Below the pieces are notes generated by a model. That model saw nothing but the letters and a program-made list of their open reading frames with translations, did no database searches and had not been told where the DNA came from. A stretch of DNA of 64,000 nucleotides, taken from the NCBI GenBank assembly GCA_030833925.1, contig JAURGE010000001.1, positions 79,535 to 143,534 on the forward strand. Reading direction: 5' to 3'. Positions 4,830 through 52,719 of this stretch are shown one piece after another (position 1 is the stretch's first letter; each line of letters starts with the position of its first letter). A program made the translations under genes and the position numbers. Origin of the DNA: Alphaproteobacteria bacterium. GTDB taxonomy: Bacteria > Pseudomonadota > Alphaproteobacteria > Bin95.

Positions 4830-5630
4830 TCAGCCTAGCGCAGCTCGGAGCTGCGGAGGTGCTAGGCGCCCACCATAGGCGCGCTGCAATGTCTCTTCGG
4901 TAAGGGCTTGACCAACCGGTCCCGAGGCGATGTTACGTACATTCAATAGTAGCGCTTGATCAAAGTATTCTTTCACCGTCGAAAGGTCATGGTGCACTGC
5001 TATTACTGTCTTTCCTGAGGATACTAGGCGCTGCAGCAGTGCTACTATGGTTCGCTCTGTGGCTGCGTCTACACCGGCTAAGGGCTCATCCATCAAATAC
5101 AGATCGGCGTCTTGGGCAATGGCTCGCGCCAGAAAAACACGCTGCTGCTGCCCTCCGGATAATTGACCAATCTGGCGGTCTGCGAAGTCAGCCATCCCCA
5201 GTTCAGCCAGTGCAGAAAGGGCGATTTCCTTATGTCGACGTCGGATTGGACGAAGCCACCCTATTTGGCGATATAGCCCCATAGTTACAACGTCGATTGC
5301 TGTAGCGGGAAATTCCCAATCTACGCTTTCCCGCTGAGGTATATATGCGATCCGTTGACGAACTTTGGGAATTGGCAGGCCGTAAGATCCAATCCGTCCA
5401 TCAATGGTCGGTACAAGTCCGAGCGTACCCTTAAGGAAAGTAGACTTGCCTGCCCCATTGGGACCTACTATGGCAACCAAAGTTCCCGGTAATGCTTTAA
5501 AGTCTACGTTCCAAACAGCGGGCGCACTCCCATAGGCGACTGTCAATCCTGACACATCAAGGGGGGATTGACGGTCAAGAGGCGCGTGAAGCTCCTCACT
5601 CTGGAGTAGGGCACGAATTTCTGGACTCAT
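4830..5630 (-). CDS. metal ABC transporter ATP-binding protein (ZnuC/MntA/SitB-like)
   Basis: Walker A motif GPNGAGKST and signature LSGGQQQRV are present. The start is set at an internal Met (MSPEIRAL) so the gene does not overlap the upstream substrate-binding-protein gene; the longest ORF would extend to 5708. Confidence 0.85.
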
Positions 5631-5634
5631 CCGA

Positions 5635-6612
5635 TTACCTCTCTCCTTTAGGAAGAAAAGCAAGAAGAGCCTGCATGCCATTTCTTGGTGCGTTGCCACC
5701 CAGTCCACGAACTATTGTCGTGACATTGTGATCAATCATACCGATGTAGCTGCCCTCATAGCTGTCTGGAGACCCCATCGCATCAGAGAAAAGAGGTTTA
5801 CCTTTTTTCACTTGGGCACCGAGGGCGCGGGCGCCTTCTATAACTGCGTCGACAGCCCTTTCTGGAGTAGATGTTTCAACAAACACTGAAGCAATGTTTC
5901 GATGGGCAATGACGGAAACCAGTTTCCGAATATGAGCAACTCCGGCTTCACTTTCGGTTGAAATCCCCTGCACACTCAACAATTCAAGCCCATACCTCCG
6001 ACCAAAATAGCCGAAGGCGTCATGAGCGGTCACCAAGACACGGGCTTTTTCTGGCACAGTTGCTAGACGGCTCTCTGCATAGAGGTCGATGGCCTTTATT
6101 TCCGCAATCACGACAGATTGGTTATTGACGATGATTTGCTTGCAACTTGGCCAAATTTCTACAAAGCGGTTAGAGGTCATGCTCAAAACTTCGGCCCACA
6201 AAATAGGGTCCATCCAAATGTGAGGGTCGGCTGAGCGGCCGTCTGGTCTAATGATTTTGACATCGGGAAGCAATTCGGATGCAAGAATGACAGGCTTAAT
6301 GGGGGCCAGTCGGCCAAACAAGCTCTGCATCTGGGCTTCAAGGTTAAGCCCGTTAGCTACAATTGCGTCCGCTCTCAAAGCCTTCGCTACATCCGTCCGC
6401 GTAAGCCTGTACAGGTGCGGATCTACGCCAGGCCCTAATAGTGTTTGAACGTCAGCGCATCCATCAAGAATCCGGCCAAGGGGTTCTCCAATTTGGGCGA
6501 TGGTTGTAAGCACGTTTGGTCGTTCGGCAGCCATCGCAGACGATGTGGTTGCCAGAAATGCAATTAACGCACTACGCAACAATCTTGAAAGTATGGAGAT
6601 GCTGTGTCGCAT
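5635..6612 (-). CDS. metal ABC transporter substrate-binding protein (TroA/ZnuA/MntC/SitA cluster-9 family)
   Basis: Signal peptide ([15 protein letters not shown]) and a cluster-9 substrate-binding-protein fold signature. It is the first gene of the transporter operon. Confidence 0.85.
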
Positions 6613-6704
6613 CTTGAAGCCTCTAGTTCCGATAGTAGTTATATTTTTTTTCAGTCAATGTTTCAAGTCTTTGCTAGATAAAAAATAATATACATAGAAT
6701 AAAA

Positions 6705-6724
6705 AGTTTAGCTAATACTAAACT
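6705..6724. promoter_or_regulatory. perfect 7-nt inverted repeat AGTTTAG-N6-CTAAACT in the divergent mntR / transporter promoter region; candidate DtxR-family operator
   Basis: Read directly in the sequence. It lies in the AT-rich 174-bp intergenic region between the substrate-binding-protein operon and the DtxR-family regulator. The TTAG..CTAA arms resemble DtxR/MntR-type boxes. Confidence 0.4.
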
Positions 6725-6786
6725 TAGTTGCTGTGCTTGTTAATTTTGGTTATGGGGTGTAGAGGAGAAGTAGATAAAGAAGCGGT

Positions 6787-7239
6787 ATGATGTCAGGGCA
6801 CAACTCCTTTGAAAGTCGATTGCAGGATGTGACTAGCCAGGCGGCTGGTTTTGACCGTCTGCGTAAAGCACGCCAAACAGAAGTTGCTGAAGATTATGTG
6901 GAGCTGATAGCCGACCTTCTAGCTGAGCAAGGAGAGGCGCGAGCCGTCGATCTTGCAGAACGTTTTGGGGTTAGTCATGCAACGGTTAACAAAACTCTTG
7001 GGCGCCTTGCGCGAGAGGGTTTCGTTCAAACCCGACCTTACCGATCAATTTTTCTCACCGAAAAAGGAGCTGCGCTGGCATCACAGGCAAGGCGTAGGCA
7101 TGAAATTGTGCTGGGCTTTCTGATGGCGATAGGCGTTTCACCAGAAACGGCAGCAATAGATGCCGAGGGTATTGAGCACCACGTGAGCAAGGAAACACTT
7201 AAAGTGTTCGAGAAGATTTTAGCAGGTAAATCCGCTTAG
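6787..7239 (+). CDS. mntR: DtxR-family metalloregulator (MntR-like manganese transport regulator)
   Basis: 150 aa with an N-terminal HTH (VDLAERFGVSHATVNKTLGRLAREGFV) and a metal-binding/dimerisation helix region. It has no SH3 domain, as in MntR. It is transcribed divergently from the metal ABC operon. Confidence 0.75.
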   Translation: MMSGHNSFESRLQDVTSQAAGFDRLRKARQTEVAEDYVELIADLLAEQGEARAVDLAERFGVSHATVNKTLGRLAREGFVQTRPYRSIFLTEKGAALASQARRRHEIVLGFLMAIGVSPETAAIDAEGIEHHVSKETLKVFEKILAGKSA

Positions 7240-7494
7240 AATCCTTGAGAAATTTGGTAGATCCAGTCTCCAGGTTTTTAATTTAGAGCCATGTAATCCT
7301 GGTTTTAAATAAACTCATTTGTTTGTGATTGAAGATAGTGTCGGTGTGTCGTGCATTGTTAGGATCTGAAACACGCGTCTGCAGGCTGAAGGACGTTTGC
7401 TTTTCCAGGGGGAAATCTGCAGTCAACTTATCTTTCCTCTACAACCTGAATTTGCGCTAAGGTTTATGTCTACGGATCCAGGGGCCATTTCTCA

Positions 7495-8832
7495 ATGACC
7501 AAAGTGCTACATCGCAATATGGGGGCGCCACCACCAGAGGCCGTGCGCTCCGAGGGTTGCCGCATATTCGATAGGGCCGGAAAAGCATATATCGACGCTT
7601 CTGGCGGTGCGGCCGTTTCATGCCTTGGTCATGGACACCCTCGTGTTATTGACGCCTTGCGTGAAGCCATTGGGAGGCTCCAATACGTACACACAGGATC
7701 CTTTACTCATTCTGCACAGGAAGAGTTAGCTGAGGTGCTTGTCGAGGACGCACCTGCAAATATTTCGCACGCCTTTTTTGTTTCAAGTGGTTCGGAGGCT
7801 GTTGAGTCTGCATTGAAGCTTGCACGTCAATATTTTTTAGAAATTGGTGAACCGAAGCGCCGGCACTTTATTGCGAGGCGGCAGAGTTATCATGGCAATA
7901 CATTGGGGGCTCTAGCTGTTGGCGGCAATGCATTGCGCCGTAGCTCCTATCAGCCGCTTCTGATGAAGGCTAGCCATATCAGCCCCTGTTATGCTTACAG
8001 AGACAAGCTCGACGGAGAGTCCCTAGAAGCATATGGCCTGCGAGTTGCTAATGAACTGCAAAGAGAAATATTGAGCTTAGGCCCTGAATCCGTTGCTGGA
8101 TTTATCGCTGAACCTGTTGTCGGAGCAACTTTAGGTGCTGCAGAACCAGCGCCAGGATATTTTCGTCGTATCCGCGAAATCTGTGACCAATACGGTGTTT
8201 TGTTAATAGCTGATGAAATTATGTGTGGTGGAGGTCGCACTGGCGACATGTATTCGATGGAGGCGGAGGGGGCCGCTGCTGACATTATCACTATCGCTAA
8301 GGGGCTTGGTGGCGGTTACCAACCAATCGGTGCCATGTTGTTGTCTAACAAAATTGCGGAGGCGATAAGGACGGGCTCTGGAAGTTTTATGCACGGTCAT
8401 ACTTATCTGGGGCACCCTCTCGCATGTTCTGCTGCCCTCGCAGTGCAAAAGGTCATTAGGGAAGAAAACTTATTGACTGCCGTTAGGGTTCAAGGAGCCC
8501 GTCTGATGAATGGCTTGAAGCAGGCTCTTGGTCAGCATCCGAACGTCGGTGACATCCGTGGCCGGGGTCTTCTAATTGGTCTGGAATTTGTAAAAAATAG
8601 GGAAACAAAGACTCCATTTGATCCCTCTTTGAAACTCAATCAGATAATAAAGAAAGAAGCCATGGAGAGAGGTGTCATGGTTTACCCCATGCCCGGGACC
8701 ATAGACGGTATTAACGGAGATCACATTGTGTTAGCGCCGCCTTTTATCGCCTCTGACAGTGAGATTGATGAAATAGTTTCAGCCGTGGCTGGGGCCATTC
8801 CAGGTGCATTAGAGAGAGTTTTAGGCTGCTAA
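7495..8832 (+). CDS. class III (omega) aminotransferase, PLP-dependent
   Basis: Motifs typical of the class III aminotransferase family: GSEAVESALKLAR, DEIMCGGGRTGDMYS and a PLP lysine region. Confidence 0.8.
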   Translation: MTKVLHRNMGAPPPEAVRSEGCRIFDRAGKAYIDASGGAAVSCLGHGHPRVIDALREAIGRLQYVHTGSFTHSAQEELAEVLVEDAPANISHAFFVSSGSEAVESALKLARQYFLEIGEPKRRHFIARRQSYHGNTLGALAVGGNALRRSSYQPLLMKASHISPCYAYRDKLDGESLEAYGLRVANELQREILSLGPESVAGFIAEPVVGATLGAAEPAPGYFRRIREICDQYGVLLIADEIMCGGGRTGDMYSMEAEGAAADIITIAKGLGGGYQPIGAMLLSNKIAEAIRTGSGSFMHGHTYLGHPLACSAALAVQKVIREENLLTAVRVQGARLMNGLKQALGQHPNVGDIRGRGLLIGLEFVKNRETKTPFDPSLKLNQIIKKEAMERGVMVYPMPGTIDGINGDHIVLAPPFIASDSEIDEIVSAVAGAIPGALERVLGC

Positions 8833-8862
8833 TTCCTAGTAAAATATATTTTTATTTGGAAA

Positions 8863-9594
8863 CTACCGCTTTGAAGCGGAGCGCCGAAATGCAGCGATTC
8901 TCTCCTTGATCCCAGGTACACTGACTGATCGGGCTAAGGCCGCCATGTCCGCGTCGCGAGTGTCTGGTCGAGTTACATCTGCGAGAGCCCTTGTGACGGT
9001 TGGCGATAGTCGACTATAGGCTTCTGTAAAATTATTGATAATGGGTTCCCAATACTCGAGATCTACAATTTGGTCGATTAAGCCAAGTTTTTCAGCCTCT
9101 TCGGTTGCAAGTGACCTATTCTCAATCTGGACTTGTCGAGCAGCAACGTTTCCTATTCTGTATGCTAAACGGCGCGTGCCAAGCACTACACCAAACCGGG
9201 GACCAGGCATTTGAAATTTTGCAGCAGGCGCGGCAACAACTCGCATAGCCGCCGCTGCAAGATCGGCACCTGCTCCAACTGCTTGGCCTTGCACTAAAGC
9301 CATTATTGGCATTGGCGCATGGAATACAGTTTGCAACATTTCTTCGACTTGTATGAATCTTAGGACTAGGTCGCCATCAGTTAGATTATCAAAGTCGCCA
9401 AAATCGAAGCCCGCACAGAAATGTTTTCCACTTCCACGGAGGATAATGACGCGCGATCCGTTTGCTGAGGCATCATTGATCGCCAGTTTAATGCCATCAG
9501 CCATATCTGCCGAAAGCGCATTCGCCTTTTCTGGTCGATTGAGGGTGATAATGGTCGCCTTGTCACGAGCATCTACAAGAACAGCGTCCTTCAT
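8863..9594 (-). CDS. enoyl-CoA hydratase/isomerase (crotonase) family protein
   Basis: Crotonase-fold motifs present (FCAGFD, GQAVGAGADLAAAA). Confidence 0.75.
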   Translation of the reverse strand: MKDAVLVDARDKATIITLNRPEKANALSADMADGIKLAINDASANGSRVIILRGSGKHFCAGFDFGDFDNLTDGDLVLRFIQVEEMLQTVFHAPMPIMALVQGQAVGAGADLAAAAMRVVAAPAAKFQMPGPRFGVVLGTRRLAYRIGNVAARQVQIENRSLATEEAEKLGLIDQIVDLEYWEPIINNFTEAYSRLSPTVTRALADVTRPDTRDADMAALARSVSVPGIKERIAAFRRSASKR

Positions 9595-10464
9595 CTACAT
9601 CTCCGGGATCGGATGTGCTCGTCGAATACATGCCGCACGCACAGCATTCTCTATCAAACAGGCAATGGTCATTGGACCGACGCCTCCTGGAACAGGAGTG
9701 ATCGCCTGCACACGTCCTACTGCTTCTTCAAAGGCCACATCACCAACTAGGCGGCTCTTTCCGTCTTCTTTACTTACGCGATTGATGCCAACATCGATAA
9801 CAACTGCGCTCGGCTTAATCCAATCTCCGCGAATCATCTCTGGGCGGCCAACAGCTGCGATCAAGATATCAGCGGTCCTGCACCGCTCTCTCAAGTCAAT
9901 AGTTTGCGAGTGAGTAATTGAGACTGTGGCGCTCTCTGCTAAGAGCATTGCGGCCATCGGTTTGCCTACAATATTTGACCGTCCGACAATTATAGCCTCC
10001 TTGCCTGCAATTTTCTGAACCACAGAGCGGATCATCCTCATACACCCAGTTGGAGTGCAGGGTGCTAGCGTTGGTGCGCCAGTCCAAAGGCGACCCACAT
10101 TAGTAGGGTGAAATCCATCTACGTCTTTATCTGGGTTGATAGCATTCAAAACGCGCTCGGCGTTAATGTGAGCTGGCAGAGGGAGTTGTACCAGGATGCC
10201 GTCCACAGTGTTGTCATTGTTGAGCAGTTCAATAAGCGAGAGCAGTTTAGTCTCGCTGACATCTTCAGGTAACTTATGCTCAAAGGAATTAAGGCCAGCT
10301 TCTATGGTGGCTTTTCCTTTGTTGCGGACGTAAACAGCACTTGCTGGATCCTCTCCAACAAGCACCACGGCCAAGCCAGGTTTGAATCCAAGGCCCGAGA
10401 CGGCTCTGGCTGCACTGGCTCGGAGGTTTGCCGCCATTGCTTTGCCGTCAATTAACCGGGTCAT
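9595..10464 (-). CDS. folD: bifunctional methylenetetrahydrofolate dehydrogenase / methenyl-THF cyclohydrolase
   Basis: Conserved FolD motifs are readable ([34 protein letters not shown]). Confidence 0.9.
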
Positions 10465-10523
10465 TGTATTTCTCCAATCTGGTTCCGTGCCTGAACTAGC
10501 AGATAGTCTGTAGGGCCTTTAAC

Positions 10524-10796
10524 CTAAACTGTCTTTGAACGGGACTTCTGACCCCGAATTAATGCAACATCTCGCTTTGGAACTCCAAAAGATTTAGCAA
10601 CCCAAGCAATTACTGTTGTGTTCGCGACACCATCAACAGGGCGAGCACTGATTTGAAGTTTTAGGCGCGTAATACCCATAGTATCAGTCTCAAAACCTAC
10701 CACTCTAGTATTGGCCGCACCTGGCTGCACTCGTTGGTCAATCAATATAGAGTTGGGGCCCTCTGCACGGGTTATCAAAAACCAGACACAGCCCAC
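10524..10796 (-). CDS. yggU: DUF167/YggU family protein
   Basis: The C-terminal region aligns by eye with E. coli YggU (PVDGxAN...G...SR.K). The ORF overlaps yggT by 22 nt, so the true start may be internal. Confidence 0.55.
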   Translation of the reverse strand: MGCVWFLITRAEGPNSILIDQRVQPGAANTRVVGFETDTMGITRLKLQISARPVDGVANTTVIAWVAKSFGVPKRDVALIRGQKSRSKTV

Positions 10797-11074
10797 TGTC
10801 TAAGAACGCTGCGGATAAAATAGATCACTAAAATGAGGATGACTGGCGATATATCAACGCTGCCAAATTGAGGAACAACACGGCGGATAGGACGAAGCAT
10901 GGGCTCCGTAAGTCGATAAAGAAAATTGCCTACTGTTGATACGAACTGGTTGTGCAAATTAACGACATTAAACGCCACCAACCAACTCAGAATGGCTGAG
11001 ATGATCAATGCCCAGACAACCAATCCAAGAACAATGTCGATCACCTGAAAAAGCGAAATTAGTATAGCATCCAT
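10775..11074 (-). CDS. yggT: YggT family membrane protein
   Basis: Small integral membrane protein with a YggT-like sequence, found in the typical yggT-yggU context. Confidence 0.7.
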   Translation of the reverse strand: MDAILISLFQVIDIVLGLVVWALIISAILSWLVAFNVVNLHNQFVSTVGNFLYRLTEPMLRPIRRVVPQFGSVDISPVILILVIYFIRSVLRQWAVSGF

Positions 11075-11145
11075 TAATTTTGGTCCGTCATCAGCGGCGG
11101 TGTGGGATAGGGAAGCTAACCGCCACCGGTCTTAAGGGCAAGTTT

Positions 11146-12318
11146 TCATGCAGCGAGTTTTAGGATTTCTAATACATCCTCGGGCCCTTTAATCGGCCGA
11201 GGATTTGTATGTATCCAGCGGTCATGCATAGAGAGTTCCGCGCAGCGCTGAAAGTCAGCCTCTGTAACTCCAACTTCTTTTAAGGTGGATGGCATCCCAA
11301 GATCTCGGATGAAATCTTGAATGAGGTCGCTTGCGGGACGCTGCGCATCCCCCATTGCTTCCGAAACTAGGCGCTGACGCTTTTCCGTATCTTTAGAGAG
11401 GTTCCAGCGCATTACATGGGGCAACATTACGCAAGACGTGTGGCCATGAGAGACTCCAAAGCTACCTCCCAAGATATGTCCAATGGCGTGACTGGCCCCC
11501 TTAGAGACGCCAGCTTGAACGCTAGACATGGAAAGCCAAGCGCCCAATTGACTGTCGCTTCTGGCTTGAAGATCTGTCGGATCCGTTTTGGTGCCTTTCA
11601 GGCCAGTGGTTAAAAGTCTCAGGCCATAAAGCGATTGGGCGTCGCAATAGGCATTGGCGGTGGGGGAGCATATAGCCTCTACACAATGGTCAATGGCCCT
11701 TACGCCTGTGGAAAGCCAGAGCCACTCAGGTGTAGGTAGGGTCAATGCTGGATCAAGGATGACTTCGCTAGGAGCCATGCCTTGCGAGCGAATTGCCTGC
11801 TTTATACCTTTCCGAGGATCGGAAACCCCGGCTAGTGGATTGTATTCCCCGGCAGATAAAGTTGTTGGACAACATATCAGTGGTAAAGAAGGTGCCCGGT
11901 ATTCTGGTGCCACTGTCGATCCATCCGCAGCAGTTCGTACAATGAAGGGATCAAAATCCGGAACCTCTTTCAGATCATGCTCAATCGCTAGGCACACAGC
12001 CTTTGCAGCGTCAGTGATCGAGCCGCCACCAATAGTGACAATCATCTCGGCACGTCCCTTGCGCGCACTTTCTGCTGCTTCCAAAACAGCATCCCTCGGT
12101 GTGTGAGGGGGCATTCCTGAGTAGATGCCACAAACTTTGCCATCGAGAGATTCGATTGCGGACTGAATTTCTTGATTGCGTACAACAAGGGCTCGACTTG
12201 CTAGTATAAAAACTCTTGATACCCCGGCTCTCTTTACTGCATCCGCGAGAGCTTCTCCCACTGACATCCCGTAAGTTACTCGTTCAAGTCGTGTGAATGT
12301 CACTGCTCCTGTTTGCAT
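11146..12318 (-). CDS. iron-containing alcohol dehydrogenase family protein (maleylacetate reductase-like)
   Basis: Fe-ADH fold motifs present (GGGSITDAAK, CCPTTLSAGE, a His-rich metal site HAIGH...HGH). The start codon is 5 nt downstream of the carboxyltransferase stop. Confidence 0.75.
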   Translation of the reverse strand: MQTGAVTFTRLERVTYGMSVGEALADAVKRAGVSRVFILASRALVVRNQEIQSAIESLDGKVCGIYSGMPPHTPRDAVLEAAESARKGRAEMIVTIGGGSITDAAKAVCLAIEHDLKEVPDFDPFIVRTAADGSTVAPEYRAPSLPLICCPTTLSAGEYNPLAGVSDPRKGIKQAIRSQGMAPSEVILDPALTLPTPEWLWLSTGVRAIDHCVEAICSPTANAYCDAQSLYGLRLLTTGLKGTKTDPTDLQARSDSQLGAWLSMSSVQAGVSKGASHAIGHILGGSFGVSHGHTSCVMLPHVMRWNLSKDTEKRQRLVSEAMGDAQRPASDLIQDFIRDLGMPSTLKEVGVTEADFQRCAELSMHDRWIHTNPRPIKGPEDVLEILKLAA

Positions 12319-12323
12319 AGTTT

Positions 12324-13871
12324 TTACCCCCGAATACCATGAAGATAGGGACCAGCTTCCCTAAGGGGAGCCGCTGTATTGGCGAAGTCGACTAGATATT
12401 TCCTGGTCTCTCGTGGATCAATAATTTCCTCAATCCAGAACGACTCTGCTGAACGGAAAGGTGACCGTAACTTTTCCAATCTCTCTTCAATTTCGGTCAG
12501 CTTAGCTGCGGGATCAGTAGCATCATCAATATCTGCTCGATAAGCGGCCTCAATTCCCCCCTCAAGCGGCAGAGAGCCCCATCGGCCTGAAGGCCAAGCG
12601 TATCGCATATTAAATCGAGACCCATTTTGGTGGGCTGCACCTGCAACACCAAAACAGTTTCTGACTATTACCGAGCACCATGGGATGGTTGTCTGCCATA
12701 TGGCAGCCATCGCTCGAGTACCTTCTTTGATAGTACCTGACTTTTCACTTTCCAACCCAATCAGGAAGCCAGGGCAATCAACCAGATATATCATTGGGAG
12801 ATGAAAGGTCTGAGCCATATCCACGAACCGCTCTACCTTACGACAAGCATCGGCCGTCCAACCACCGCCGAAGTGATATGGATCACTTGCCATCACTGCA
12901 ACTGGCCACCCGTCAACACGCGCAAGGCCCGTGATTATCGACCGGCCATACATTTTGCCCATCTCAAAGAAGGATCCCTGGTCAACTACTGATTCCACAA
13001 TTGGTCGCATTTTGTAGACCTTACGGATATCTCTTGGGATCGCCTCGATAAGGGATGCGTCATTCCGATCGGGGGAGTCGGAGCTTTGGATTCGCTCAGG
13101 CAGCTCGTAGACGTTTTGTGGTAAATAAGACAGAAAACGGCGGGCCATTTCAAAAGCCTCTTCTTCGGAATCTACCGCTTCGTCAACTGCACCAGCACGC
13201 AGTTGAATTTTCCAACCACCTAGCTGTTGCTTGTCCAAGTCCTGACCTAAACGTTTCACAACTGGTGGCCCCGCAACAAATAGAGCGGATATATCCTTCA
13301 CCATGACTGAATAATGTGCCGCTGCTTGGTGAGCTGCACCAAGGCCAGCAACCGACCCTAATCCAAGGGATACGCGTGGTATTGTACCCATATTGCGCAC
13401 CACCCATTCCCATCCGGAAACACCCGGAACATTGGCCCGGCCTGTAGTCTCGATTGTTTTGACCGAGCCGCCCCCACCTGAGCCTTCCACAATCCTGATC
13501 AAAGGTAACCGGAGTTCATTGGCCATTTGCTCGCACTTTATGTGCTTCTCTTTGATGGTCGCATCTGCTGAGCCGCCGCGGACGGTGAAATCATCCCCAC
13601 CAATCACTACTTGGCGACCGTTTACTCGCCCTCTCCCAAAAACAAAATTGGAGGGAGTGAAATGCTCGAGATCGTTTTTCCCGTCATACTGAGCCATACC
13701 CGCAACTTTTCCGAGTTCATGAAAAGAGCCAGGGTCCAGCATGGCATCGATCCGCTCTCTGACAGTAAGCCTGCCACCATCTTTCTGCCGCTTTATCTTG
13801 TCGGCTCCTCCCATCATCTCCGCGAAATCTTCGCGACGCTTTAATTCATCAAGTTCAGTCTGCCATGACAT
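12324..13871 (-). CDS. acyl-CoA carboxylase carboxyltransferase (beta) subunit family protein
   Basis: 515 aa with both N- and C-terminal carboxyltransferase domains, resembling propionyl-CoA / methylcrotonyl-CoA carboxylase beta chains. No biotin carboxylase or BCCP gene is nearby. Confidence 0.8.
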   Translation of the reverse strand: MSWQTELDELKRREDFAEMMGGADKIKRQKDGGRLTVRERIDAMLDPGSFHELGKVAGMAQYDGKNDLEHFTPSNFVFGRGRVNGRQVVIGGDDFTVRGGSADATIKEKHIKCEQMANELRLPLIRIVEGSGGGGSVKTIETTGRANVPGVSGWEWVVRNMGTIPRVSLGLGSVAGLGAAHQAAAHYSVMVKDISALFVAGPPVVKRLGQDLDKQQLGGWKIQLRAGAVDEAVDSEEEAFEMARRFLSYLPQNVYELPERIQSSDSPDRNDASLIEAIPRDIRKVYKMRPIVESVVDQGSFFEMGKMYGRSIITGLARVDGWPVAVMASDPYHFGGGWTADACRKVERFVDMAQTFHLPMIYLVDCPGFLIGLESEKSGTIKEGTRAMAAIWQTTIPWCSVIVRNCFGVAGAAHQNGSRFNMRYAWPSGRWGSLPLEGGIEAAYRADIDDATDPAAKLTEIEERLEKLRSPFRSAESFWIEEIIDPRETRKYLVDFANTAAPLREAGPYLHGIRG

Positions 13872-14052
13872 CGCCAGTGGCTCCTTTGGGAGGTGGTTTA
13901 ATTAGTTCCATGGTATGACTGAGATGTGAGCGCGCCAATCCAGACTGAGTAATTTAGGTCCAGGATGAATTGGTGTTGGCTACACCTCAAAACACTTCCA
14001 AGGGAAAAGAATAAACAGGTCAAATTTTTTATAGAAGGCCAACCCATTAAAC

Positions 14053-14811
14053 TTAGGGATTGCGTAATGACGGCAACCCGACTCCTACGGCGTCAAATCC
14101 ACCATCTGCAGCCAGGATTTGGCCGGTGATGTAAGAGGCTTTATCGCTCGCAAGAAACACAATTGCCTCAGCAATTTCTCGCTCAGTACCGTAGCGATTC
14201 AGTGGAATTGCATCGTGATAAGCGTCAATAATATCTTGCGTGTGAACCTGTTTTGACATTGCAGTAGCAACAGGGCCTGGGGCGACACAATTTACACGTA
14301 CGCCGTATTCCCCAAGCTCTGCTGCTTGCTGTTTCGTTAAGTGGATTACAGCAGCTTTCGAAGTCCCGTAAGCAACTCTTAGGGTAGATGCCCGAAGCCC
14401 AGAAATTGATCCTATGTTTACTATTGAGCCTCGTGTTTCTTTCAAATATGGAATAGATGCCTGGGCGCAGAGGAAAACCCCATCAAGGTTTGTCTCCATA
14501 ACGCGCCGCCAGCGAGTAAAATCATGCTCCTCTAACGGCCCAAAGTCGGCAACTCCGGCATTATTGACGAGGCAATCGATTCGACCGAAAGACCTAATGG
14601 CCTCTGTCATGATACGGCCCGCATCTTGAGGGTTGGAAACATCGGCCGTTATAGCACTCACATGCGTTAGCTTAGACGCTTCGGCGTCAAGCAGCGCTTC
14701 GAGCCGGTCGACCATTACAACGCTCCAGCCATCAGCAAGAAATAAATCTGTTGTGGTGCGGCCTATTCCTCTTGCGGCGCCTGTAACTATTGCAACTTTT
14801 CTAAATTTCAT
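14053..14811 (-). CDS. SDR family oxidoreductase
   Basis: N-terminal TGAARGIG dinucleotide-binding motif and a catalytic YxxxK (YGTSK). Confidence 0.8.
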   Translation of the reverse strand: MKFRKVAIVTGAARGIGRTTTDLFLADGWSVVMVDRLEALLDAEASKLTHVSAITADVSNPQDAGRIMTEAIRSFGRIDCLVNNAGVADFGPLEEHDFTRWRRVMETNLDGVFLCAQASIPYLKETRGSIVNIGSISGLRASTLRVAYGTSKAAVIHLTKQQAAELGEYGVRVNCVAPGPVATAMSKQVHTQDIIDAYHDAIPLNRYGTEREIAEAIVFLASDKASYITGQILAADGGFDAVGVGLPSLRNP

Positions 14812-16160
14812 GGTTTGGCGATGTCCGTGATTTCGGAGACGTCATCGAGTTCTGCAATTTTCCAGCTCAAGGACGATACTGATTCTGCTTTGTTTCTCGG
14901 CAAAACAAGCTCGGCTTGATCCATAAATTTCTTCTCAAGTGCCTCGATCGACATAGGTTGCTTGAGACTTCCTATGCCATGCTCTATCCGTCGATGGTGG
15001 ATCCTACCGTCAGTCATCTCGATCGTGACATCCGCTCCATCGCGATTAACGCCATTGTCAGCCTGAACGACTATCTTACGTCGAGTCGCTACAACCATTG
15101 GGTTAGCTACCGCATCTTCCGTACCTTCAGAGATGCCAGCAGACTTCATAACGAGAGCTGCAGCTGTCCAATGCTGGAGGCTAACCTGAGCGAGTTGGGC
15201 GTTCGGAGGCTCAGGTCTATCTGTCAGTGTTAGACAAAGGGGGTTTAACCGTAGCCGAATTGCGTTCACTTTTTCCGCATTGAAAGAGGGATCGGCTGCG
15301 ATTTCCAGGCAGGCATCAAGGATTGGATGGATAACAATACCGCATGGATAAGGCTTTGGCATATTTTCCCGCATCTGCCACTTATCACCTAATTCATCTG
15401 TGACATGCTGCAGGTGAGCCTTTGGAGCAAAAACTTCACCAAAACCCTTTGGGCCTTCGAGCGTCGCCGCGGTTGCTGTCACTCCCTCTGCTGCCATTAG
15501 AGCGGCTATATATCCAGCTCGCGATGCTTGGCCGGGTAAAAGGCTAGTGCACATAGACCCATGAGTTTGGCGGAAACCCATCGCCGCGGCAGCTCCAAGT
15601 CCCAGTGCATGCAGCGTCACTTCTTCATTAAATTGCAGTAGGTTAGCCATTGCTGCTGCGGCACCGATAGGGGTCGCTACGCTCGACATGTACCATCCAA
15701 CCTGGGTCTCCGCTGGGGGAACAGTGAGTGCCATGGCAATTCGGCAGGCGACCTCTACGCCAACCGTGAAGGCCGCATGGAGATCTCGGCCCGATGTCAC
15801 CCTTCGTTCTGCTTCAGCCATCAATGGAGCTGCTATTGGACCAGCAGGATGGAGAACGGTCGCGAGGTGAGTGTCATCGAATGCATGGGCTGCTGAAGCT
15901 TGTGCGTTCACCAAAACAGCGTCTGGTGCAGATAGCTTCTCATTTCGACCAAGCAGCGATGTCTTCACCCCTCCGGCAAACGGTAAAACAGTTTTAAATG
16001 TTCGCACTGTTGCATCATGGGTCATCCCACCCAGGGTGCAGCCGATAAAATTGTAGAACTGTTGTGTAGCGTCTTCGCATACTTCATTGGGTAGGTCCGC
16101 AGCCCGGACGTTGGCAACAAAGTTGGCTAACACTTGGGTGGTTTCAATCATTAATTTCAA
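14808..16160 (-). CDS. MmgE/PrpD family protein (2-methylcitrate dehydratase-like)
   Basis: 450 aa with an MmgE/PrpD-like sequence throughout. It overlaps the neighbouring genes by 4 nt on both sides, which suggests one operon. Confidence 0.7.
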   Translation of the reverse strand: MKLMIETTQVLANFVANVRAADLPNEVCEDATQQFYNFIGCTLGGMTHDATVRTFKTVLPFAGGVKTSLLGRNEKLSAPDAVLVNAQASAAHAFDDTHLATVLHPAGPIAAPLMAEAERRVTSGRDLHAAFTVGVEVACRIAMALTVPPAETQVGWYMSSVATPIGAAAAMANLLQFNEEVTLHALGLGAAAAMGFRQTHGSMCTSLLPGQASRAGYIAALMAAEGVTATAATLEGPKGFGEVFAPKAHLQHVTDELGDKWQMRENMPKPYPCGIVIHPILDACLEIAADPSFNAEKVNAIRLRLNPLCLTLTDRPEPPNAQLAQVSLQHWTAAALVMKSAGISEGTEDAVANPMVVATRRKIVVQADNGVNRDGADVTIEMTDGRIHHRRIEHGIGSLKQPMSIEALEKKFMDQAELVLPRNKAESVSSLSWKIAELDDVSEITDIAKP

Positions 16161-17041
16161 ACTCCCAAAAGTTCTGCAACGGCGTCAGAAAAGGCGCGTG
16201 GTGCCTCCTGAGCCACATTATGACCAACCTTTTCCAAGGTTCTTCGCTCATATCCTCCAATGAACTTTTCGGCTTGGCGATCTTTGGTAGGGACTGGATG
16301 TACGCCGTCCGCAAGGCCATGAAGATTAATAGTTGGAACAGATATTACTGGCATCTTGGAGAGTGCAGCTTCGATAGCTCCATACGCAGGATCTGGGTCA
16401 GCGTAGCCGTAGCGCACCCGATAGGACTGAATTACCACATCAACGAAATCCGGGTTTTCGAAACTCGGTGCAGTTTTTAGAAATTCAGCCTCGGTGAAGT
16501 TCCATTCTGGTGACCAGAGCTTCCAAAGCAATCGAGCTAACTCAGTCCGATTGGCCTCAAGACCCGCTCGTCCTCTTGGGGTGTGAAAGTAGTACTGGTA
16601 CCAGTACCGATGTTCTGCTGCTGGGGGTGCTGGATGGATGGAAGCTGCTACATTTTGGATGTTATAACCAGCTCCAGTCACAAGACCCGTGGCTCTTTCA
16701 GGCCATAGCGCTGCAACAACATTAGCGGCGCGCCCACCCCAGTCATATCCTGCTAATACTGCCTGCTCGATTTCCAGGGCATCCATAAGGTCAAGGAGAT
16801 CTGCTCCCAGGGCTGCTTGTTCTCCTGAACGTGGGGTATTGGGGTCGAGGAAAACTGTTTGCCCGTAGCCTCTTAGATAAGGTGTTATCGTTCGGACACC
16901 GCGGTTATTTAGCAAAGGTGCGACTTCAGTAAAGCTCTGAATATCATAGGGGAAGCCATGCAATAGAATGGCTACTCGGCCATCTTTTGGGCCAGTATCA
17001 AAGTAAGCAATTTCCAGCTTTTTAGTTCGAATCTTTTTCAT
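16157..17041 (-). CDS. alpha/beta hydrolase fold protein (epoxide-hydrolase-like)
   Basis: HGFP oxyanion motif and a nucleophile elbow (GYDWGG). The start is set at the MKKIRT Met; the longest ORF would extend to 17098. Confidence 0.7.
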   Translation of the reverse strand: MKKIRTKKLEIAYFDTGPKDGRVAILLHGFPYDIQSFTEVAPLLNNRGVRTITPYLRGYGQTVFLDPNTPRSGEQAALGADLLDLMDALEIEQAVLAGYDWGGRAANVVAALWPERATGLVTGAGYNIQNVAASIHPAPPAAEHRYWYQYYFHTPRGRAGLEANRTELARLLWKLWSPEWNFTEAEFLKTAPSFENPDFVDVVIQSYRVRYGYADPDPAYGAIEAALSKMPVISVPTINLHGLADGVHPVPTKDRQAEKFIGGYERRTLEKVGHNVAQEAPRAFSDAVAELLGV

Positions 17042-17457
17042 CGCGTAAAATCCTCTAACGCGGTGTGGTGCCCATTGGCTTAGCCTGCAAAACAGCAACC
17101 AACGGTAGACAATATCGAGTTCTTATTACAGCCCCAGGTTCTGCTTCGATGTATCAAGTTCAAAAAAATCTATTGCGCATCTGAAAATTTATGTTGGAAA
17201 ATTTGGGGCAGAATTGTTGGTGAAAACCAAGTGGGGCGCAGGTTGCTGCGCTTTTACACACTGTTACATTTTTTAGTCTTAGAAGAAGCCGGTTTCTGAT
17301 AAATGTTTTGTATGAAAAACTTTAATACGAGCCTCAAGAGCCGTATCGGAGTTATTAGAGTTAAACGTTTCCAACAACCCGCTAACAACTTTCCATAAAA
17401 GTCGATTAGCGTAGTCAAACAAGCAAGAAATCAGCCAGGATTAGGATCAACAAGCGG

Positions 17458-22171: not shown

Positions 22172-22777
22172 ATGGAAACCGTTATGCCCCGGAGTGATGA
22201 TCTTCAGTTTTTCTTGGACGAGTTGAAAACTTCGATTGCAAAATGCCAACCCGCACACGAAATTCAATCAGCAACAACTTTGGCATTCCAACGACTCGAA
22301 ACTCTCGGCCAAGAGAAATGGTCGTCGAACCACTCTGAAGCACCGGCAACGGCTTGGCTAGAACAGGCGATCAAAACTGCCAAGGCTGGTCCTACAGGTA
22401 AGCTAGCAGACGCTTTAGAAAATCTAGCCCCTAAGCTTTTTTGGCAGAGACGGATGGATCGACCTTCGATCCATCCCAAATGGCCGAATTCCCACGCAAA
22501 TTCGGTTATCATTGGTGATACTGGCTTGGAATGTAGGAACGACGTTCGTATTGGGGTAAGTCTTCTGGCCCCTTACACCATTTATCCAAACCATCAACAC
22601 CCACCAGAGGAAGTTTACATAGCATTGAGCAATGGATCTTGGCGACAAAACGATGGATTTTGGCAAACCCGTGGTGCGGGTGGGCTTATCTATAATCCGC
22701 CAAATATTGTTCACGCTATGAAGTCTAACTCAGACCCGTTACTCGCAATTTGGATATTGCCTCTCTCACTCCTGTAG
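22172..22777 (+). CDS. cupin-domain protein with a DddK/DddW/DddQ-like metal and Tyr motif (candidate DMSP lyase)
   Basis: 201 aa: an N-terminal ~120-aa helical region plus a cupin. Cupin motif 1 reads H141-x-H143-x3-E147-x-Y149, and the second cupin His is H181 (38 residues after H143). This spacing is the same as DddK (H56/H58/E62/Y64/H96) and DddW (H81/H83/E87/H121). Confidence 0.45.
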   Translation: METVMPRSDDLQFFLDELKTSIAKCQPAHEIQSATTLAFQRLETLGQEKWSSNHSEAPATAWLEQAIKTAKAGPTGKLADALENLAPKLFWQRRMDRPSIHPKWPNSHANSVIIGDTGLECRNDVRIGVSLLAPYTIYPNHQHPPEEVYIALSNGSWRQNDGFWQTRGAGGLIYNPPNIVHAMKSNSDPLLAIWILPLSLL

Positions 22778-43863: not shown

Positions 43864-44034
43864 CGTGGGGAGCCACTTGACCGTCGGACTGGAACGAATC
43901 CTCCGGGACCTCACCAAGTGAGGTGGGCGCCGTGTGTGGGAGACCACGATCCCCCGCAGTGACAGCTCCCTAGAGCTTCGATATCGGCCCCGGGATTTCT
44001 GAGGTCCTAACGCATCGCGCAGCAGACCCCACGC
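43864..44034 (-). ncRNA. ssrS: 6S RNA (SsrS) candidate
   Basis: ~171-nt non-coding segment directly upstream of the 5-formyl-THF cyclo-ligase gene on the same strand (E. coli ssrS-ygfA synteny). The 5' GCGUGGGG pairs with the 3' CCCCACGC in a closing stem. Internally 5' GGACCUCA pairs with 3' UGAGGUCC, and the central GCCGAUAU and UUGGUGAG stretches resemble E. coli 6S RNA. Ends are approximate (about +/-10 nt). Confidence 0.6.

Positions 44035-52643: not shown

Positions 52644-52719
<76 letters not shown>

Follow-up and report, generated by a model that had tools for sequence, protein, structure and literature searches.

In a 64,000-nucleotide stretch of DNA from an alphaproteobacterium (contig JAURGE010000001.1, positions 79,535 to 143,534; hereafter the window), a gene for a 515-amino acid carboxyltransferase (CT) of the acyl-CoA carboxylase beta-subunit type (12324..13871, minus strand) is followed by a gene for a 390-amino acid iron-containing alcohol dehydrogenase (Fe-ADH; 11146..12318, minus strand). 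We consider it probable (roughly 0.7) that this CT is the beta subunit of a biotin-dependent acyl-CoA carboxylase belonging to an uncharacterised clade, that its biotin carboxylase (BC) and biotin carboxyl carrier protein (BCCP) partners are provided in trans, and that the position of Fe-ADH is the product of a local rearrangement. For the window CT itself, we infer biotin dependence, partners in trans and an acyl-CoA substrate. The original prediction had allowed both for a biotin-independent CoA-ester decarboxylase and for a CT that borrows BC and BCCP proteins encoded elsewhere. The second proposal is supported by orthologues, 74–77% identical, that have adjoining BCCP and BC genes and by nearest relatives outside the family that are fused to these domains. 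We found nothing in favour of the first; the altered glycine motifs of the CT are present in its fused biotin-dependent relatives as well.

Biotin carboxylase and carrier-protein partners

We called the genes of all 80 CT loci with a codon model and clustered the neighbouring genes. At 7 of the 80 genome loci, a stand-alone BC gene of about 453 codons lies directly upstream of the CT gene and divergent from it, preceded by a gene for a small carrier protein. Pfam confirms a 73-amino acid biotinyl-domain protein and a BC at one locus (L024). Using the L024 BC as a query, we looked up two relatives that are 58–62% identical to it and found the same CT/BCCP/BC arrangement in unrelated assemblies (L081-L083 and L084), with BCCPs carrying EAMKM and CTs 74.5% and 75.3% identical to the window CT, respectively. 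Divergent BCCP and BC genes adjoin nine CTs that are 74–77% identical (L012, L017, L022, L024, L025, L077, L079, L081 and L084); at these nine loci the BCCP (73–123 amino acids) has the EAMKM biotinylation motif and the BC is 453–454 amino acids long. Lone and BC-linked CTs are about 75% identical, as are lone clades among themselves, and their invariant motifs are identical, which argues for one shared molecular function.

BC genes likewise adjoin the CT in a clade that is 50% identical to the window protein (L166, L094). These two loci were the only informative hits of a metagenome scan that took the aligned linked BCs as its query and relied on generic BC motifs; among the matches listed, most were BCs 43–54% identical. 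In its separate BC (453 amino acids), BCCP (73 amino acids) and CT (515 amino acids), the BC-linked clade resembles the three-gene acyl-CoA carboxylases of archaea and actinobacteria.

An exhaustive HMMER search found that the nearest relatives outside the CT family are fusion proteins, whose CT parts are 41–48% identical to the window CT and nearer than any solved PccB. They include single BC-BCCP-CT chains (P0367, 1106 amino acids; P0368, 1091; P0381, 1141; and P0390) and BCCP-CT fusions (P0389, P0392). P0367 aligns collinearly with 4rcn, a long-chain acyl-CoA carboxylase, a type that the family resembles through the CT domains of the metagenomic fusions (45–48% identity), with which it has its altered motifs in common; the window protein differs from 4rcn in being a free CT, and 4rcn scores 173 bits against it. 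The family motifs VAGLGAA, FGVAGAA and WPSxxWGSLPxEGGxEAAYR occur in the fusions too, with variants such as GSVAGLPA and FGVAGGCH in P0367 and GPIVGLGAA and FGVGGGGL in P0389. SACE_4237 was considered as a fusion-type relative and rejected, being a eukaryote-like acetyl-CoA carboxylase of about 200 kDa and not of the fusion type of about 1100 amino acids.

As originally stated, no BC or BCCP gene is encoded anywhere in the window: a tblastn search with Escherichia coli AccC and AccB gave a best E-value of 0.07, and a motif scan of the window found no biotinylation motif in a biotinyl-domain context. No PccA-like gene was found in the window either. As BC and BCCP are unlinked to the CT, they would have to be supplied in trans. 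The BC would carboxylate biotin on the BCCP with ATP and bicarbonate, and the CT oligomer would then transfer this carboxyl group to the alpha carbon of an acyl-CoA that sits in the first oxyanion hole of the CT. The partners could be a dedicated BC/BCCP pair located elsewhere in the genome or another carboxylase's alpha subunit; in mycobacteria, the unlinked CT genes for AccD4, AccD5 and AccD6 are served by an alpha subunit encoded elsewhere (the shared AccA3).

Placement of the carboxyltransferase among known enzymes

The two-domain Carboxyl_trans architecture is full-length in the CT (PF01039; CT residues 29–498, profile positions 2–476 of 493, E = 5e-87). Against TIGR01117 (mmdA) the protein scores 294.3 bits, well under the cut-off of 998.8 that defines the MmdA subfamily, and it matched no other full-length NCBIfam model. 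Its best solved relatives, at about 250–275 bits, are the beta subunits of propionyl-CoA carboxylase (PCC; top, 275 bits), the archaeal 'MmdA' and the Thermotoga CT. Below these, in descending order, come AccD5, the 12S transcarboxylase, MCC, GCC, AccD6 and GcdA (AccD5, 216 bits; AccD1, 177; 4rcn, 173; AccD6, 145; GcdA, 70–88).

The CT is similar to PccB of Methylorubrum extorquens (6ybp/6ybq) and Streptomyces coelicolor (1xny) in its size class (510–530 amino acids) and its two domains, and it is collinear with them over residues 7–493. However, it is 36% identical to the alphaproteobacterial PCC beta subunit of Methylorubrum (6ybq; 478 aligned positions), which is far too low for orthology within the same class and would make the CT a separate deep branch rather than a PccB. 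The second glycine of both PccB oxyanion motifs is replaced in the CT (AGG to AGL in the N domain, GGA to GVA in the C domain), the Tyr-Asp specificity pair of PccB is Gly-Ala, and the CT family has a clade-specific EGSGGGGSVKT insertion and WPSxxWGSLPxEGG motif. The PccB specificity residue is Asp422 in S. coelicolor numbering, preceded by the Tyr; the roles of these residues were reportedly described by Diacovich et al. in 2004. We considered the altered AGL and GVA glycines as a sign of biotin independence and rejected this, because the same motifs are found in the BC-BCCP-CT and BCCP-CT fusions; the variants thus appear compatible with carboxybiotin chemistry. Together with the Gly-Ala pair they may reflect a different acyl pocket.

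The linked partners of the family differ in kind from those of PccB, being a split BC and a small BCCP rather than the fused BC-BCCP alpha subunit PccA. According to the original prediction, a neighbouring BC and BCCP pair together with clear PccB orthology would mark this as an ordinary propionyl-CoA carboxylase; such partners do adjoin the gene at orthologous loci, but PccB orthology was not found. The CT is no closer to AccD5, AccD6 and AccD1 than to PccB, and no epsilon subunit is evident. MmdA and GcdA of the Na+-pumping decarboxylases and MdcD/MdcE, the models behind the decarboxylase idea, share the CT fold with it. It differs from the first two in its low TIGR01117 and GcdA scores, and from the split beta and gamma subunits MdcD and MdcE, which are encoded with mdcA, mdcC (acyl carrier protein) and accessory genes, in being a single 515-amino acid chain. 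The scanned neighbours on either flank of the CT included no mdc genes, and a membrane beta-subunit gene was not searched for.

CT homologues number in the thousands in a large protein collection, where the best 120 are all at least 74% identical, and their source names are generic ('acyl-CoA carboxylase subunit beta', 'methylmalonyl-CoA carboxyltransferase'). Among species-representative genomes, the closest CT loci are in metagenome-assembled genomes (MAGs) of Rhodospirillales (96% and 93% identical), which indicates the affiliation of the window. CTs that are 71–77% identical occur in Rokubacteria/Methylomirabilota, Reyranella, Enhydrobacter aerosaccus, marine Rhodospirillaceae, Nisaea and Thalassobaculaceae. 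Across 79 family members, 42% of positions (216/515) are at least 98% conserved. Between the window and its close relative L001, the CT is 96% identical, compared with 76–91% for flanking genes, among them Fe-ADH (85%), FolD (84%) and the PrpD-like protein (76%). These figures indicate unusually strong purifying selection on the CT. Literature searches found no characterised member; the clade is very strongly conserved and distinct from PccB, MccB, GCC, AccD5/6, MmdA and GcdA.

At six loci (L006, L013, L014, L026, L035, L036), the gene after the CT encodes a short-chain dehydrogenase/reductase (SDR) that is 89–97% identical among them, in the order CT-SDR-pseudouridine synthase. These six MAGs are filed as Rokubacteria, Acidobacteria (Acidoferrum), Chloroflexota (Limnocylindria) and Dormiibacterota. 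A near-identical SDR and gene order across phyla suggests mis-binning or very recent transfer, and the phylum breadth of the family may be overstated.

Position of the alcohol dehydrogenase gene and surrounding loci

A 5-nucleotide spacer (AAACT; 12319..12323, minus strand) separates the CT stop codon from the Fe-ADH start codon. The open reading frames, Pfam matches and spacer confirm the originally described order of a 515-amino acid two-domain CT and an Fe-ADH 5 nucleotides later, and the spacing is identical in L001. The CT gene has its own ribosome-binding site (AAAGGAG), and a scan found no terminator-like site or hairpin between the two genes. Given the short spacer, they are likely co-transcribed in this lineage.

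The functional pairing of the two genes that the original prediction implied did not hold up across the family. Among the 80 loci, the window, L001 and L002 are the only ones with Fe-ADH after the CT, and no neighbouring gene in the clustered loci is common to the whole CT family. In L003 and L004, whose CTs are 85% identical, the neighbours are already glyoxalase and glutathione S-transferase (GST) genes. Conversely, Fe-ADH orthologues 70–77% identical have no CT nearby in 3 of 3 sampled cases. In L086 and L088 the order is a divergent luciferase-like gene (minus strand) followed by Fe-ADH, YggT, DUF167 and FolD, and the window keeps this Fe-ADH-yggT-yggU-folD block, with YggT, YggU and FolD 73%, 52% and 75% identical to those of L086. 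The adjacency of CT and Fe-ADH thus appears, from gene order, to be a lineage-specific juxtaposition by local rearrangement and not a conserved functional pair. In the simplest history, the CT, the three genes upstream of it (below) and an Ldh_2 gene would have come to lie upstream of a pre-existing Fe-ADH-yggT-yggU-folD unit.

The Fe-ADH protein matches the Pfam families Fe-ADH (E = 7.5e-29) and ADH_Fe_C (E = 1.6e-36) and falls under every NCBIfam equivalog cut-off, the best being 4-hydroxybutyrate dehydrogenase (166 bits against 500). Its best solved relatives are 3jzd, a structural-genomics protein, and maleylacetate reductases (3w5s, E = 3e-34; 3hl0, E = 2e-31), although the best-scoring stretch is confined to the C-terminal half. 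JGI names its relatives 'maleylacetate reductase'. No ring-cleavage genes lie alongside Fe-ADH at the orthologue loci or in the window; the context is yggT-yggU-folD, at the orthologue loci with a divergent luciferase-like gene. 'Maleylacetate-reductase-like', the label it was given in the original prediction, is a fair description of the sequence and not a function.

Downstream of Fe-ADH on the same strand, the block continues with a YggT family membrane protein (10775..11074; PF02325, E = 9e-23), a DUF167/YggU family protein (10524..10796; PF02594, E = 8.5e-21) and FolD (9595..10464; NCBIfam NF010785, 430 bits against a cut-off of 396), beyond which lies an enoyl-CoA hydratase gene. Upstream of the CT is a 181-nucleotide AT-rich spacer (13872..14052, minus strand) in which Rfam, promoter and terminator scans found no Rfam family, no consensus sigma-70 site and nothing regulatory. 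It is preceded by three genes on the same strand as the CT, translationally coupled through 4-nucleotide overlaps, that together form an uncharacterised unit (14053-17098): an alpha/beta hydrolase (16157..17098; Pfam Abhydrolase_1), an MmgE/PrpD family protein that overlaps its neighbour by 4 nucleotides on each side (14808..16160; PF03972 and PF19305) and an SDR oxidoreductase (14053..14811; adh_short_C2, E = 2e-67). The PrpD-like protein matched no NCBIfam equivalog, which sets it apart from standard 2-methylcitrate dehydratases.

Both L001 and L002 retain the block hydrolase-PrpD-SDR-CT-Fe-ADH. The PrpD-like gene adjoins the CT only in the window and these two loci, which are also the only ones in which the hydrolase is conserved with the CT. 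In L002 (JAYQLI010000035, a long-read assembly; 5400-12700), the PrpD-like, SDR, Fe-ADH and Ldh_2 genes each seem to be split by frameshifts, which are probably assembly errors and not pseudogenes. Neighbours of other CT clades include pxpABC, 2-hydroxyacid dehydrogenase, TauD, acyl-CoA dehydrogenase and SDR genes. The recurrent ones (pxpA-pxpB-pxpC in Reyranella, 2-hydroxyacid dehydrogenase, TauD, acyl-CoA dehydrogenase, GST and glyoxalase) were considered as conserved partners and rejected, each being limited to one clade. CT-SDR adjacency (about 13 loci) was likewise rejected as a conserved pair; these SDRs are 25–35% identical between lineages, a background level, and are not orthologues. 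Reyranella-type loci (for example L046, L067 and L068) have 5-oxoprolinase-type pxpA (minus strand), pxpB (plus) and pxpC (plus) directly upstream of the CT and one to three tandem copies of a gene for a 463-amino acid protein without a Pfam match downstream.

Elsewhere in the window, a 201-amino acid cupin that matches the dimethylsulfoniopropionate (DMSP) lyase family (22172-22777, plus strand; PF16867, E = 2.7e-41) is encoded among a series of oxidoreductase and amidohydrolase genes, suggesting that the organism is marine and cleaves DMSP. The window also contains a 6S RNA (43866-44028, minus strand; 47.8 bits, barely over the gathering score) and a tRNA-Arg(CCG) (52644-52719, minus strand).

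Alternative explanations and significance

If the CT acted alone as a biotin-independent CoA-ester decarboxylase or other lyase, its fold would stabilise an enolate and free CO2 by the logic of MdcD/MdcE. Biotin-independent CT-fold decarboxylases have precedent (PMC5534430), and the missing BC and BCCP genes in 64 kb, the lone setting of most family loci within ±10 kb and the alteration of both GG oxyanion motifs can be read in this way. Against this, lone and BC-linked members are about 75% alike with the same invariant motifs, the altered motifs are found as well where BC and BCCP are covalently joined to the CT, no NCBIfam malonate-decarboxylase subunit is among the listed matches (E ≤ 0.001), and no mdcA- or mdcC-like genes are among the scanned neighbours; we regard this explanation as very improbable. 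That the CT is an ordinary PccB with pccA encoded elsewhere is less far-fetched but still unlikely: although PCC beta subunits head its solved matches (275 bits) and the sources name its relatives 'acyl-CoA carboxylase subunit beta' or 'methylmalonyl-CoA carboxyltransferase', it reaches only 36% identity with alphaproteobacterial PccB, archaeal, actinobacterial and Thermotoga CTs score alike (as for a deep separate branch), TIGR01117 gives 294 bits against 998.8, the Tyr-Asp pair is Gly-Ala, and the linked partners are a split BC and a small BCCP instead of a fused PccA.

We give similarly low odds to an operon peculiar to this lineage whose CT and Fe-ADH, perhaps joined by the hydrolase-PrpD-SDR trio, serve a single catabolic route, such as one that carboxylates a CoA ester and then reduces or oxidises a related intermediate. 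The pairing is absent from the other 78 CT loci, including L003 and L004 at 85% identity, and Fe-ADH orthologues adjoin yggT-yggU-folD without a CT. The 5-nucleotide spacer without a terminator-like site and the oxidoreductase-rich region are what such an operon would predict, as is the five-gene block kept in L001 and L002, but these two loci are so close to the window that a common gene order weighs little.

Several observations also weigh against our preferred explanation, a biotin-dependent beta subunit with partners in trans next to a rearranged Fe-ADH gene. BC and BCCP are absent from the window, and the trans partner is deduced rather than seen. At 71 of the 80 genome loci, the window's own clade included, the CT is lone within ±10 kb, and in a neighbour-joining CT tree all BC-adjacent family members fall in one clade, so the linkage may go back to one evolutionary event. 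In the two oxyanion-hole motifs the second glycine has given way to Leu and Val, respectively, the specificity Asp of PccB is Ala, and the catalytic competence of the CT is assumed from its conservation. Finally, the 5-nucleotide spacing without a terminator leaves room for a functional link to Fe-ADH specific to this lineage.

The BC-linked clade has further genes that may bear on substrate. In L024 (11545-12219) and L084 (5294-5980), a gene whose start overlaps the CT stop codon encodes a 224–228 amino acid protein that matches Sua5/YciO/YrdC weakly and may be an accessory subunit or a partner in the pathway. Clusters of this clade also hold a translationally coupled YrdC-like gene or an SDR gene, an amidohydrolase, an M81/MlrC peptidase, aminotransferases, a two-subunit CoA-transferase and a luciferase-like monooxygenase, a hint that an amino or amide compound is broken down by way of a CoA ester. 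These accessory genes are not shared by other CT clades, and no homologue of the YrdC-like protein, amidohydrolase, M81 peptidase, aminotransferase, CoA-transferase or luciferase-like protein was found in the window. Our tentative proposal, which we hold with considerable doubt, is that the family is the catalytic subunit of a biotin-dependent carboxylase whose substrate lies outside acetyl-, propionyl-, butyryl-, 3-methylcrotonyl-, geranyl- and long-chain acyl-CoA, that the widened Gly-Ala pocket and clade motifs would reflect this substrate, and that one clade perhaps works with a coupled YrdC-like protein. A Sneathiella-type locus (L085, 100-9356) has the order CoA_transf_3, CT (519 amino acids), BCCP (73 amino acids), CT (538 amino acids), transporters and BC, a biotin enzyme cluster with two CTs, the 538-amino acid one being 44% identical to the window CT.

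An unlinked CT gene is no reason to assume a biotin-independent enzyme, and a gene spacing of 5 nucleotides alone is no proof of a pathway. If our explanation is correct, the lone CT does not represent new chemistry but a large, unstudied and unusually well conserved branch of acyl-CoA carboxylase beta subunits in soil and marine bacteria, and knowledge of the substrate would add a missing piece to the carbon metabolism of Rokubacteria, Reyranella and marine Rhodospirillales.

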